The notes: generated by a model not told the origin, from the letters alone. A stretch of 64,000 nt of DNA from Nitrososphaeraceae archaeon (GCA_035297365.1 DATGZA010000014.1:1-64000), one strand, 5' to 3'. Positions 18,560-41,611 are shown, counted from the stretch's first letter. Numbers and translations: made by a program.

Positions 18560-20167
18560 ATGGCCAAGGATCCAGAGAAGACAAATTTGAGAAGTTTAGC
18601 TGTGATAAAGAAGATGGGATTTGAACCTAAAAAAATTTATGCCAATCTGTCGGTGCCAGAATTGGTAGAATTTTCAGTTATTCGGAAAGAAGCTAATATG
18701 TCCGCAACAGGAGCCTTGTCTGTTTTCACTGGAAAATTTACTGGGAGATCCCCTGATGATCGATATATTGTTGAAGATAATATAACTAAAAAAAATATTA
18801 ATTGGGGAAAAGTAAATCATCCAATTTCAGAACAAAATTTTGATATAATATTTGAACGAATGAAAAAGTTTGTAAGAAACAAGGAATTATTCTTATTTAA
18901 TGGATACGTAGGAGCAGATGAGGAAGCAAGATTTCCTGTAAGTGTAATTACAGATAAAGCTTGGCAATCCCTTTTTGCTAATCAAATTTTGATAAAACCA
19001 AAAGAAAATGAATTAAAAAATTTTTCTCCAAAATTGGTTCTCTTTTCTTTAAATGATTTTAAAGCGATGCCAAAAAAAGAGAAAACGGAGTCAGAAACAT
19101 TCATTATTATTAATTTAAAAAAGAAGATTGTTTTAATAGGATCCACTTCCTATGCCGGAGAAATAAAAAAATCAATATTTTCTGTTATGAATTATTTCTT
19201 GCCTGCAAAAGGCATTTTTCCTATGCATTGCTCTGCAAATGTTGGTAAAAATGGAGACACTGCACTATTCTTCGGATTATCAGGAACTGGCAAAACAACG
19301 TTATCTGCTGATTCTAATAGATTTTTGATTGGAGATGACGAACATGGATGGTCCACAGACGGAATATTCAATTTTGAGGGAGGATGTTATGCAAAATGTA
19401 TAAACTTGAAAAAGGAAACAGAACCACAGATCTGGAATGCAATAAAATTTGGATCGGTTATGGAAAATGTCGTTATTTCAAATAATAAAAGGGTAGCCGA
19501 CTTTAGTGACAATTCATTAACGGAAAATACTCGTGCTGTATACCCTTTAGAATTCATACCACGGGCAGTAATACCTAGTGTAGGTAGTCATCCATATGTG
19601 ATAATTTTTCTTACTGCTGATGCTTTTGGGGTATTGCCACCAATCGCAAAATTGACAAAAGAAGGAGCAATGTATCATTTTATGTCTGGGTATACTAGTA
19701 AGTTAGCCGGTACTGAAAGAGGAATTACAAAACCCAAAGAAACCTTTTCTCAATGCTTTGGTGCACCATTCATGCCCCTGCATGCTATGAGTTACGCCGA
19801 AATGTTAGGACGAAAAATGACGGAACACAATTCAAGAGTATATTTGATTAATACTGGATGGCATGGAGGTCCCTATGGAATAGGCAAGAGAATTGATCTT
19901 AGACATACCAGAGTAATGGTGACTAATGCTATAAGTGGAGAAATAGATAAATGTTCATTTAAATTGCATCAAATTTTCAATTTGCAGATTCCAACATCAT
20001 GTCCTGGTGTACCTAACGAGCTACTTGATCCCAGTCAAACATGGAAAGATAAAAAAGACTACAATATTGCAGCTAGGAAATTAGCAAGATTATTCACGCA
20101 AAATTTTGAGAAATTCGGGCAAGTATCTAAAGAAATTATTGATGCTGGTCCAAAACCAGATGTATAA
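18560..20167 (+). CDS. pckA: Phosphoenolpyruvate carboxykinase (ATP)
   Basis: GLSGTGKTTLS, LIGDDEHGW, NFEGGCYAK, ENTRAVYP. Confidence 0.97.
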   Translation: MAKDPEKTNLRSLAVIKKMGFEPKKIYANLSVPELVEFSVIRKEANMSATGALSVFTGKFTGRSPDDRYIVEDNITKKNINWGKVNHPISEQNFDIIFERMKKFVRNKELFLFNGYVGADEEARFPVSVITDKAWQSLFANQILIKPKENELKNFSPKLVLFSLNDFKAMPKKEKTESETFIIINLKKKIVLIGSTSYAGEIKKSIFSVMNYFLPAKGIFPMHCSANVGKNGDTALFFGLSGTGKTTLSADSNRFLIGDDEHGWSTDGIFNFEGGCYAKCINLKKETEPQIWNAIKFGSVMENVVISNNKRVADFSDNSLTENTRAVYPLEFIPRAVIPSVGSHPYVIIFLTADAFGVLPPIAKLTKEGAMYHFMSGYTSKLAGTERGITKPKETFSQCFGAPFMPLHAMSYAEMLGRKMTEHNSRVYLINTGWHGGPYGIGKRIDLRHTRVMVTNAISGEIDKCSFKLHQIFNLQIPTSCPGVPNELLDPSQTWKDKKDYNIAARKLARLFTQNFEKFGQVSKEIIDAGPKPDV

Positions 20168-20170
20168 AAG

Positions 20171-20303
20171 TAGCCCGGAGCAGATTCGAACTGCTGTCTC
20201 CAGGTTTCTTTTCTGAGATCCAGAGCCTGAAATCCTTAGCCCTACCATGGAGTTTAGCCGCTAGATTCGGCATCAGTCACGAAACAACTGATTCGACCGG
20301 GCT
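20171..20303 (-). tRNA. tRNA-Gln(CUG) with three introns (10/11: 20266-20293; 21/22: 20236-20253; 37/38: 20206-20219)
   Basis: Removing 28+18+14 nt gives a 73-nt cloverleaf AGCCCGG TC GTCT AGCGGCTAA GGAT T TCAGG CTCTGGA CCTGG AGAC AGCAG TTCGAAT CTGCT CCGGGCT A; A1-U72 typical of archaeal tRNA-Gln; BHB-type motif at each intron. Confidence 0.9.
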
Positions 20304-20573
20304 CCTCGAGCTACATTTTTACTTGTTTTATACAGATATTTATTTTATCTGACGAGTCTTTTGTACCAGTCTTTCAAAATATCTTATATTGCCATTTTTG
20401 TTAATGCGATAAATTATCCAAGTTAACTTAAAATATACACTAATCATTTAATATCTAAATTTTGACGAATGTACAATGAGTTTGCTTAATTTTGAAACAA
20501 AATTTTAATTGGAGAGAAATTAATTCAATCAGAACGGCTTGTATATCGAATAACGATTATTGAATTTCGACTT

Positions 20574-29864: not shown

Positions 29865-29955
29865 GGGCTCGTAGCGCAGACTTTCATAGGCGCAAAATGG
29901 ATAGCGCGGACGCCTCCTAAGCGTCAGGTCGAGGGTTCAAATCCCTCCGGGCCCG
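29865..29955 (+). tRNA. tRNA-Arg(CCU) with a 16-nt D-loop intron at 15/16 (29880-29895)
   Basis: GGGCTCG/CGGGCCC acceptor, GACGC-CTCCTAA-GCGTC anticodon arm, GAGGG-TTCAAAT-CCCTC T arm; BHB GCGC-AG^A ... GCGC-AA^A. Confidence 0.92.
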
Positions 29956-36886: not shown

Positions 36887-37441
36887 ATGAAAGATAAAAA
36901 AATTATAGGAGAATTAATCGAAAACAGAGTTATAGTTTGGAACATTTTAGAATCAAGGCATCTGTTTGGTAATGGGTATTTTGGAAAACCTCTGGGAGTT
37001 CCCAAACCAAAAGGAATTAATTTTGACTCTCCATTGATACTTGATTTAGTAGAAAGTTACTATCTGATCCAGAAAGGAAAACTTAAAGTTATTTCAAAAG
37101 ACAAGTTATTATCTTTACGAGATATGAAGGAAATATGTAGAAAGCAATACGATAAATTCGATTTAAAATATACAGTATTTCAGAATTTGAGAGACAGAGG
37201 ATATGTGGTATCACCTGGAATAAAGTTCGGATGTGATTTTGCAGTATATGAACATGGTCCGGGAATAGATCATGCACCATTTTTAGTACAGGTATTAAAT
37301 GCGGAGGAAGTAATTACGGCTACAAATATTATTTTATCAGGAAGACTTGCTACTACAGTTAAAAAACAATTCATAATTGCAATTCCTAAAATGAAGGATA
37401 AGAGTGTACAGTTTATAGCGTTTGATTGGTGGAGGGCCTGA
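36887..37441 (+). CDS. endA: tRNA-intron endonuclease catalytic (alpha) subunit
   Basis: GIKFGCDFAVYEHGPGIDHAP (catalytic Tyr, His), GRLATTVKK (Lys), GKPLGVPKPK loop. Confidence 0.95.
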   Translation: MKDKKIIGELIENRVIVWNILESRHLFGNGYFGKPLGVPKPKGINFDSPLILDLVESYYLIQKGKLKVISKDKLLSLRDMKEICRKQYDKFDLKYTVFQNLRDRGYVVSPGIKFGCDFAVYEHGPGIDHAPFLVQVLNAEEVITATNIILSGRLATTVKKQFIIAIPKMKDKSVQFIAFDWWRA

Positions 37442-40738: not shown

Positions 40739-41611
40739 TCATTTTTTGTTGTTTAATATATTCATAAATTTATACATTTTCTCATATGAATCTTTGAGAT
40801 CATGACATTTTTGGAGAGAAGATTTAATATTTGTTATATTTCGAAATAACTTGAATTCATTTTTGTCATTGATTAATTCGTTATATTTTTGGTTAATTTT
40901 GAAATAATTCAATAATTCTTTTTTAAAGAAATGATTATCAAAAAAAAGTGAATTAATTAAGTCAGGTTCATCATTCAAAATGCTCTCAGAAAGAATACAC
41001 TGAATTTTAAAGGTAGTTCCTCCAAAAGTCAATAAATCATAATAATTCTTCTCGTGTAAAACATCAGCAAATAAAATATTTACATAATGAGTAAGGCCCA
41101 ATACAACTGCCATCATCTGATCATGCAGACTTACATTTTTAACCTCTAAAATATTTGATTTAGGAAACATATTCTTAACTACTTTAATTTCATTTTCCCG
41201 ATTTCTTATTGGAATAAATAAAACCTTTAAAGCCTTCTCTCTAGACGCTCCTGGACCAAACATTGGATGTATACAAATAGGAACAATAAAATCTGAGATA
41301 ATTCTTAACTCTCTAAAGGATTTATTTTTTAAAGATGAAATCTCGACAAGCTTAGATGAAGGTTTCATTAATTTAGAACATGTTTTTATCATTTTGGGGA
41401 TGACTCTCAAAGGAACGCAAAGAATCACAACATCAGAAGTTTCAACACATTGTTGAAGACTATTTTCAATTATAATGTTCGGAAAATTTCCTAACGAATT
41501 AGTTCTTATATCATATGCTTTTAGTATTACATCTTTTCTATGAAGAAAATATTTTATGAACCAAGATCCCATCTTTCCGCTAGCGCCGATTATGGATATC
41601 TCTGTTTTCAT
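40739..41611 (-). CDS. tyrA: Prephenate/arogenate dehydrogenase
   Basis: GASGKMG, EISSLK, IHPMFGP, HDQMMAVVLGLTH. Confidence 0.92.
   Translation of the reverse strand: MKTEISIIGASGKMGSWFIKYFLHRKDVILKAYDIRTNSLGNFPNIIIENSLQQCVETSDVVILCVPLRVIPKMIKTCSKLMKPSSKLVEISSLKNKSFRELRIISDFIVPICIHPMFGPGASREKALKVLFIPIRNRENEIKVVKNMFPKSNILEVKNVSLHDQMMAVVLGLTHYVNILFADVLHEKNYYDLLTFGGTTFKIQCILSESILNDEPDLINSLFFDNHFFKKELLNYFKINQKYNELINDKNEFKLFRNITNIKSSLQKCHDLKDSYEKMYKFMNILNNKK

Follow-up and report, generated by a model that had tools for sequence, protein, structure and literature searches.

Transfer RNA (tRNA) genes of Crenarchaeota and Thaumarchaeota can contain multiple non-canonical introns, up to three in each gene, and the multi-intron cases described so far lie mostly in Pyrobaculum and Thermofilum (PMC8450103, PMC3218864, PMC4033280). 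Thaumarchaeota have the (alpha-beta)2 type of the splicing endonuclease EndA, which cuts relaxed (HBh' or hBH) forms of the bulge-helix-bulge (BHB) motif (PMC4090602, PMC5829648). tRNAscan-SE 2.0 contains a Thaumarchaeota-specific BHB model, with which the number of thaumarchaeal non-canonical introns rose from 58 to 107, and it seeks up to three introns iteratively, since neighbouring introns can mask each other (PMC8450103). As multi-intron thaumarchaeal tRNAs have already been documented (PMC8450103), a three-intron gene is in itself ordinary for the phylum. Here we describe such a gene, for tRNA-Gln(CUG), in a stretch of 64,000 nucleotides from Nitrososphaeraceae archaeon (GCA_035297365.1 DATGZA010000014.1:1-64000; the window), together with a near-copy of its 5' acceptor strand that lies in the leader just upstream (the leader copy). 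The host belongs to the Nitrososphaeraceae, ammonia-oxidising Thaumarchaeota of soil, and the window is contig C14 of a genome of 2.52 Mb (110 contigs, 97% complete, GC content 30.5%; here and below G, C, L and f numbers are our handles for genomes, contigs, loci and families). We argue that the locus is very probably a functional tRNA-Gln(CUG) gene, the only one found in the genome, with three protein-spliced BHB introns that EndA would cut and four exons that would be ligated to a tRNA of 73 nt. We further propose, with a probability of roughly one half, that in the tRNA-Gln genes of Nitrososphaerales the intron at position 10/11 and a leader stand-in for the acceptor strand at the 5' end of the transcript form one functional unit, in which the acceptor stem would form only after intron 1 has been removed; if this is true, the unit would force splicing to take place before 5' trimming.

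The thaumarchaeal tRNA introns already described resemble those of the present gene in phylum, in their short length and position outside the anticodon loop, in numbering up to three in a gene, and in their removal by EndA, whereas a leader copy is not mentioned in the accessible text of that study (PMC8450103). The multi-intron tRNAs of Thermoproteales (Sugahara et al. 2007, 2008, via PMC4033280, PMC3218864, PMC8450103) share two to three BHB introns per gene, relaxed hBH/HBh' motifs and a host with (alpha-beta)2 EndA, but they belong to another phylum; the present host is mesophilic and AT-rich, and its three-intron state is stable and family-wide in one tRNA, without a genome-wide burst. 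In pre-tRNA-Glu(UUC) of Methanopyrus kandleri a D-loop intron with an HBh' motif at 20b/21, i.e. one position from intron 2 of the present gene, occurs together with a canonical intron, and its relaxed motif needs an EndA of broad specificity; that precursor has two introns compared with three here, and neither adjoins the acceptor stem (PMC5829648). The split and permuted tRNAs of Nanoarchaeum equitans and Cyanidioschyzon merolae are similar in that sequence from outside the tRNA presents a BHB to EndA (PMC4090602, PMC4033280). In those cases, however, the BHB is built from the flanks, which EndA cuts, whereas the leader of the present gene would be paired to the 3' acceptor strand, away from the cuts, and would be lost in later 5' trimming. 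Leader copies of an acceptor strand were not described in the papers covered by a full-text literature search, which did not extend to subscription papers such as Sugahara 2007/2008 and Marck and Grosjean 2003.

The locus is 133 nt long and lies on the minus strand (20303..20171). It had been read in an initial annotation as a tRNA-Gln(CUG) gene with introns at 10/11, 21/22 and 37/38; direct reading gave the same sequence, including all of the junction strings quoted there, and the assignment is borne out by in-silico splicing, by orthologues that lack intron 1 or intron 2, and by covariation. Exons and introns alternate with lengths of 10, 28, 12, 18, 16, 14 and 35 nt, and the four exons sum to 73 nt. 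When joined, they are recognised by ARAGORN as tRNA-Gln(ctg) with a full cloverleaf of all four arms and the anticodon loop C-U-CUG-G-A. Exon 1 (20294..20303) supplies tRNA positions 1-10, i.e. the 5' acceptor strand, U8, C9 and G10, and is invariant in 24 aligned rows from the same genus. Exon 2 (20254..20265) supplies positions 11-21, i.e. three nucleotides of the D stem and the 9-nt D loop, and exon 3 (20220..20235) positions 22-37, i.e. the 3' strand of the D stem, position 26, the 5' strand of the anticodon stem and the loop to G37, with the anticodon CUG. Exon 4 (20171..20205) supplies positions 38-73, i.e. the 3' strand of the anticodon stem, a 4-nt variable region, the T arm, the 3' acceptor strand and the discriminator A; CCA is not encoded. 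The identity as tRNA-Gln is given by CUG in a 7-nt loop with U33, and the exons align with tRNA-Gln(CUG) genes from across the order and are similar to the UUG paralogue. The four exons follow one another in order on one strand, within 133 nt, which is not the layout of a split or permuted tRNA gene.

Each junction was scored against the standard BHB geometry, in which a central helix of 4 bp (H) is flanked by two 3-nt bulges, each cut after its second base, with an outer helix (h) and an inner, intron-side helix (h') on either side. Intron 1 (20266..20293; 28 nt at 10/11, in Sprinzl numbering as throughout) has a hairpin AUCAGU/ACUGAU, the sequence GCCG, which pairs with tRNA nucleotides 5-8, and the bulge AA^U; H is complete (4/4), h' has 6 Watson-Crick pairs (9 with G-U) and h has none, i.e. 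the motif is a relaxed HBh'. In intron 2 (20236..20253; 18 nt at 21/22) H is formed between GGCU of the D loop and GGCU of the intron, with bulges AA^A and AA^G, and the motif is near-canonical (H 4/4 with two G-U pairs, h' 2, h 1). Intron 3 (20206..20219; 14 nt at the canonical site 37/38) has a canonical hBHBh' motif, in which H has 3/4 pairs owing to a C34.A mismatch, h' has 2 and h, the anticodon stem, has 7. The view that each junction is a motif of BHB type thus holds with the relaxed form at intron 1, and the motifs are conserved and covary. Moving both cuts of intron 3 by one base still gives a tRNA-Gln(CUG), with A37 in place of G37, and therefore the exact cut at this intron is set by the BHB geometry alone. 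Two further pairings were considered for intron 1 and rejected: the leader and tRNA nucleotides 1-4 do not pair with the bases right after the 3' bulge, as read directly from the sequence, and so provide no outer helix, and a pairing of tRNA nucleotides 1-4 with GGCU of the D loop was dropped as many genes with intron 1 have GGUC there.

As H of intron 1 uses tRNA bases 5-8, it competes with the acceptor stem. This is the sole conflict among the three motifs, which are local and can all be written in one nested structure; the structure therefore imposes no order of splicing. The initial annotation had suggested that splicing may be ordered; an obligatory order is not needed.

The locus was matched in all 24 genomes of the same genus, in 23 of them over all 133 nt (85-100% identity) and in one up to a contig end. 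Within the genus exon changes occur only at D-loop positions 16, 20 and 20a (24 rows), and the loop of intron 1 varies in length and sequence in almost every genome. Orthologues that lack an intron join the exons precisely at the proposed junctions for introns 1 and 2: intron 1, often missing in other families of the order, is absent exactly at GGTCG/TCTAG in 28 tRNA-Gln(CUG) genes of relatives, and intron 2 is absent exactly at 21/22 in two Nitrosopumilaceae-like genomes (L085, L086). Intron 3 is present, at 14-26 nt, in 62/62 distinct parsed CUG orthologues, and the intron-less counterparts are UUG paralogues (L046, L088). A site at 10/11 had been called unusual, which does not apply to tRNA-Gln in this order, where intron 1 is present in 53 of the 82 tRNA-Gln genes examined. 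The pattern of presence and absence offers dated gains or losses of a tRNA intron inside one genus, and is useful material on the spread of archaeal tRNA introns.

The splice helices are conserved as well. H of intron 1 is complete in 36/39 distinct genes, the three exceptions having C5.A, and H of intron 2 in 61/61 distinct orthologues, in which its third pair is C-G, U-G or U-A; H of intron 3 has four pairs in 8/62 distinct orthologues and three in the other 54/62. These counts leave out 11 of the 75 parsed genes, in which intron 2 lies elsewhere or extra inserts are present. In a 27-row alignment 93.2% of the cells pair, as against 84.7% after shuffling and 33-47% when the partners were slid. 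Eleven pairs change on both sides, and 0/500 shuffles reach any of five measures, although, with related rows, these shuffle counts cannot be read as probabilities. All four of the pairs counted in the intron-1 hairpin are compensatory. Within H of intron 1, where C5, G6, G7 and U8 pair with GCCG of the intron, the pair G6:C has become C6:G in three rows of family f15, i.e. the change of G6 to C is matched by a change of C to G in the intron, which agrees with the earlier proposal that this helix takes bases of the acceptor stem.

The gene also keeps its place in the genome. It is convergent with pckA (18560..20167, plus strand; Pfam PEPCK_ATP, 725.7 bits), which encodes ATP-dependent phosphoenolpyruvate carboxykinase and whose stop codon ends 3 nt from the 3' end of the tRNA. 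A comparison of the locus next to pckA across relatives, as had been advised, showed that this arrangement is kept with a complete tRNA gene in 64 of 80 related pckA loci, and 62 of these 64 have intron 1; the relatives reached in this way carry the names Nitrososphaeraceae, Nitrososphaera, Nitrosocosmicus and Nitrosopolaris. When the 2.52-Mb genome was searched by BLAST with the spliced sequence, no second tRNA-Gln(CUG) gene was found; the only matches were pieces of the locus and the 3' end of a tRNA-Gln(UUG) gene on C62. The intact, intron-less copy whose presence elsewhere would have undermined the initial annotation was therefore not found by BLAST in this 97%-complete genome.

Several of the relatives differ from this pattern in their introns. 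A tRNA-Gln(CUG) gene of family f7 (L042, G030:C77) is 219 nt long and gives a 73-nt tRNA-Gln (ARAGORN) after four removals of 38, 19, 45 and 44 nt; its extra intron, at about 25/26, has H 3/4 and h' 4, and the gene has one intron more than the maximum of three per gene stated in PMC8450103. In eight genes of families f4 and f9 (L028, L069, L071, L074, L077, L079, L038, L087) the D-arm intron is not at 21/22 but about two bases downstream, in the 3' strand of the D stem, which suggests, from the sequences compared, intron sliding; these genes were excluded from the intron-2 counts. In one further tRNA-Gln(CUG) orthologue (L080, G059:C28) the D loop is interrupted after TCTAG by about 16 additional nucleotides, besides introns 2 and 3, and this may be another intron position.

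The catalytic subunit of the enzyme expected to cut the introns is encoded in the same window. The gene at 36887..37441 (plus strand) encodes a catalytic (alpha-type) EndA subunit of 184 amino acids (Pfam tRNA_int_endo, 101 bits; tRNA_int_endo_N, 61 bits), which aligns over its full length with the crenarchaeal EndA chains 2cv8_A, 3p1z_B, 3ajv_B and 2zyz_B, the best solved relatives (E 4e-44 to 8e-33). Its stretch PKPKG, which may be the EndA 'specific loop' with its lysine, is aligned with EKPRG of 3p1z_B. The genome encodes two EndA paralogues, this alpha subunit and a beta-like one on C75, a number that would be expected if the enzyme has broad specificity, and the enzyme is most likely a heterotetramer of the two. 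The beta-like gene (L032 1205..1812, equivalent to G000 C75:77205-77812, plus strand) is present as two open reading frames of 81 and 113 amino acids, with the N and C domains in different frames around a run of 11 A residues; the frame break may reflect an error in sequencing the homopolymer, a genuine frameshift or slippage.

Upstream of the gene, the element UAGCUCG (20307..20313, minus strand; positions -10 to -4 relative to the tRNA) is a near-copy of the 5' acceptor strand that can form 7 bp, one of them G-U, with tRNA nucleotides 67-73, and it is invariant in the 24 same-genus rows. We compared its occurrence with that of intron 1 in 82 tRNA-Gln genes of both isoacceptors from across the order, by scoring the pairing of leader positions -16 to -1 with the 3' acceptor strand. 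An uninterrupted pairing of 6 bp or more is present in every one of the 53 genes with intron 1 (21 genus-by-isoacceptor groups), whereas in 27 of the 29 genes without it (25 groups) the longest such run is 5 bp or less. The association is also seen between close relatives and within single genomes. Within one genus, intron 1 and the leader copy occur together in G124 and are both absent from five other genomes, and family f9 splits alike, with the two present together or both missing; in G029 and G037 the UUG gene has both and the CUG gene of the same genome has neither. Family f15 has C:G as acceptor pair 6:67, and there the corresponding base is found in the leader copy as well as in the intron. 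Among the 62 pckA-linked genes with intron 1, 56 have a leader pairing of at least 7 bp within 16 nt; because the loci overlap, this sample and the 82-gene sample are not to be summed.

The position of the leader copy was examined in 89 distinct upstream-plus-gene sequences from Nitrososphaeraceae. Farther upstream of the gene, an AT-rich motif, GATAAAATAAATATC (20335..20349, minus strand), is conserved across the genus and family and is a candidate B recognition element (BRE)/TATA promoter; in 4 of the 89 sequences the motif was not found by the pattern used. The leader copy starts 18-20 nt past this motif in 75 of the 78 intron-1 genes that have both, while its distance to the tRNA ranges from 2 to 13 nt, and in 7 genes without intron 1 the mature 5' end lies 22-24 nt past the motif. 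If the motif is the promoter, the leader copy sits at the very start of the transcript. Visual inspection of promoter positions in 36 tRNA genes of the AT-rich genome gave nothing usable, and the motif analysis was restricted to orthologues.

These observations point to the following scheme. The primary transcript would contain all three short introns; UAGCUCG in its leader would pair with the 3' acceptor strand of the precursor, leaving bases 5-8 free for the splice motif of intron 1. EndA would cleave the BHB motifs and an RNA ligase would join the four exons into the 73-nt tRNA, and once intron 1 was gone the real acceptor stem could form and the leader would be trimmed off. With moderate confidence, we infer that the leader copy acts as a stand-in ('decoy') partner of the 3' acceptor strand in this way. 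The wider question is how an intron can lie at a site where the acceptor stem and the splice helix compete, and the leader copy is a concrete and testable answer to it. That the leader copy tracks the 10/11 intron is the part most worth an experiment, for which cultivated Nitrosocosmicus would be suitable since the record of Candidatus Nitrosocosmicus agrestis (L148) carries the same three-intron gene and the same leader.

We calculated the energies of explicit structures with a 13-nt leader. The structure with the acceptor stem formed was predicted at -23.6 kcal/mol, that with the leader helix and the intron-1 BHB at -23.4 kcal/mol, and that with the intron-1 BHB and no leader helix at -14.2 kcal/mol. 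Across ten genes the ensemble cost of forcing H to form was 3.6-8.4 kcal/mol for the leaderless transcript and 0.0-5.9 kcal/mol with the native leader, and the drop was clear relative to shuffled leaders for five of them (the UUG gene of G000, L027, L044, L045 and L047; 0-3 of 40 shuffles match). Minimum-energy folding gave structures without the intron-1 BHB, the predicted probability of H being 0.00-0.01 with the leader present or not. Overall, the calculated energetics of the leader are equivocal; a kinetic, co-transcriptional role of the leader would escape equilibrium calculations.

A number of observations weigh against the proposals made above, and concern the introns, the RNA and the leader in turn. 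The BHB geometry by itself is not above chance, as 8 site pairs of the locus combine H 4/4 with h' of at least 2, compared with 12.2 +/- 5.2 in 300 shuffles of it, and therefore the case for the gene rests on the restored tRNA and the comparison with relatives; in addition, intron 1 is without an outer helix and the mismatch in H of intron 3 is conserved. In four metatranscriptome runs, available as contigs only, the unspliced locus is covered and no joints are seen; contigs cannot show that a product is absent, and their length suggests that they reflect DNA or read-through, so that we give them no weight for or against splicing. As to the leader copy, relatedness among the genomes makes them non-independent, and raw counts of leaders and introns therefore overstate the association. 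Two genes without intron 1 (L030, L035) have G-U-rich runs of 6-7 bp, and three genes of family f19 (L070, L073, L076) have no 10/11 intron and yet have a copy 18-21 nt further upstream. Of the 62 pckA-linked genes with intron 1, three have copies further upstream (starting at -18 to -20), two have a one-base bulge and one (L151) has no leader copy within 55 nt upstream. The fold predicted to have the lowest energy (-46.3 kcal/mol) differs from both of the models compared. At the tRNA-Gln(CUG) locus itself H costs 5.7 kcal/mol for the leaderless transcript and 2.7 kcal/mol with the leader, a drop that 14 of 40 shuffled leaders equal, and the drop is likewise unclear for L024 (18/40 shuffles) and for L028 (25/40, with no gain at all). 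Equilibrium folding of seven genes before and after in-silico splicing predicted no switch: pairing of the leader with the 3' strand was high throughout in 3/7 and the acceptor stem won throughout in 4/7.

Some of the genes just named have unusual leaders. The leader of L030 (G035:C12), AGUCUGG, resembles an acceptor-strand copy decayed by C-to-U changes, as might remain after loss of the intron. The f19 genes have a direct repeat of 6-12 nt that includes the 5' acceptor strand and lies 24-28 nt upstream; we tried to read these repeats as the ends of a BHB intron and found no cut position with H 4/4 and h' of at least 2. The repeat is possibly a distal or hairpin-sequestered copy.

The gene could be as described and the leader copy could have no role in splicing at the RNA level, being instead a relic of a duplication that came with the gain of the intron, a promoter-proximal or initiator element in the DNA, or a device that e.g. 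delays 5' trimming or use of the 3' end until splicing is done. This alternative is somewhat unlikely, but it would fit the absence of a clean switch in equilibrium folding, the shuffled leaders that match the native one at the tRNA-Gln(CUG) locus, the presence of intron 1 without a copy in L151, and the location of the copy near the expected transcription start, where it could act as DNA. On the other hand, the copy is kept in 21/21 of the groups with intron 1, from at least 8 families, despite a spacer that varies from 1 to 13 nt, it is missing from 23/25 of the groups without the intron, and it follows the acceptor change in family f15. Moreover, the copy in Nitrososphaeraceae has U in place of C, which still pairs with G69, and extends to the discriminator A73, neither of which would be so in a plain duplicate.

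We consider it very improbable that the upstream copy is instead the true first exon, with a very short fourth intron between the two copies. The copies are nearly identical in families f4 and f15, so that such a removal would give the same product there; however, the stretch to be removed is 8-11 nt in most lineages, too short for a 4-bp helix and two bulges, the upstream AGCUCG of the present gene would make a weaker acceptor stem without G7, and in f19, where the copies are 24-28 nt apart, no cut reaches H 4/4 with h' of at least 2. Finally, although a tRNA-Gln(UUG) gene exists on C62 and could read CAG codons, and the contig-only RNA data contain no spliced product, it is scarcely credible that the locus is a decaying pseudogene, since across the whole family its exons are nearly invariant while its introns vary, its splice helices covary, its synteny with pckA holds in 64/80 loci, and no other CUG gene was found.

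Taken alone, i.e. apart from the proposed unit of leader copy and 10/11 intron, the three-intron gene is a matter of annotation: the only tRNA-Gln(CUG) gene found in the genome escapes two common finders, and ARAGORN miscalls the UUG paralogue. ARAGORN calls no tRNA anywhere in the window when the locus is unspliced and, with relaxed settings, wrongly assigns the locus to tRNA-Ile(gat) with an intron of 45 nt. With the Rfam tRNA model the unspliced locus reaches 18.9 bits against a cut-off of 29, the match being confined to the 3' part (exon 4), and a permissive Rfam search around the locus returned only chance-level matches to C/D-box and tmRNA-like models (E 0.29 to 9.9). The initial annotation's warning that standard finders may miss the gene is thus justified for these two tools, and as they miss it, tRNA counts for soil ammonia oxidisers that come from these tools will be too low.

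The tRNA-Gln(UUG) gene (G000 C62:40744-40842, minus strand) spans 99 nt; it has an intron of 26 nt at 10/11 and its leader copy reads GCCCGG, and ARAGORN wrongly reports a 72-nt gene free of introns (40745-40816) in its place. We identified 33 tRNA candidates in the genome with the T arm and the acceptor strand as anchors, and at 21 long or problematic loci (17 of them among the 33) we allowed up to three BHB-like removals, judged by ARAGORN. The resulting count of introns per gene was rejected as too permissive, as seven combinations were accepted at the tRNA-Gln(CUG) locus alone, false tRNA-Pro calls among them. As a rough census, it indicates that many tRNA genes of this genome are interrupted, and that the tRNA-Gln(CUG) gene, at 133 nt, is the second longest after C62:11847-12005 (159 nt). 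A further interrupted gene in the window, for tRNA-Arg(CCU) (29865..29955, plus strand; 91 nt), is also missed by ARAGORN when unspliced, with an Rfam match to model positions 9-63 only; removal of its 16-nt D-arm intron (cut after linear nucleotide 15) gives a 75-nt tRNA recognised by ARAGORN.

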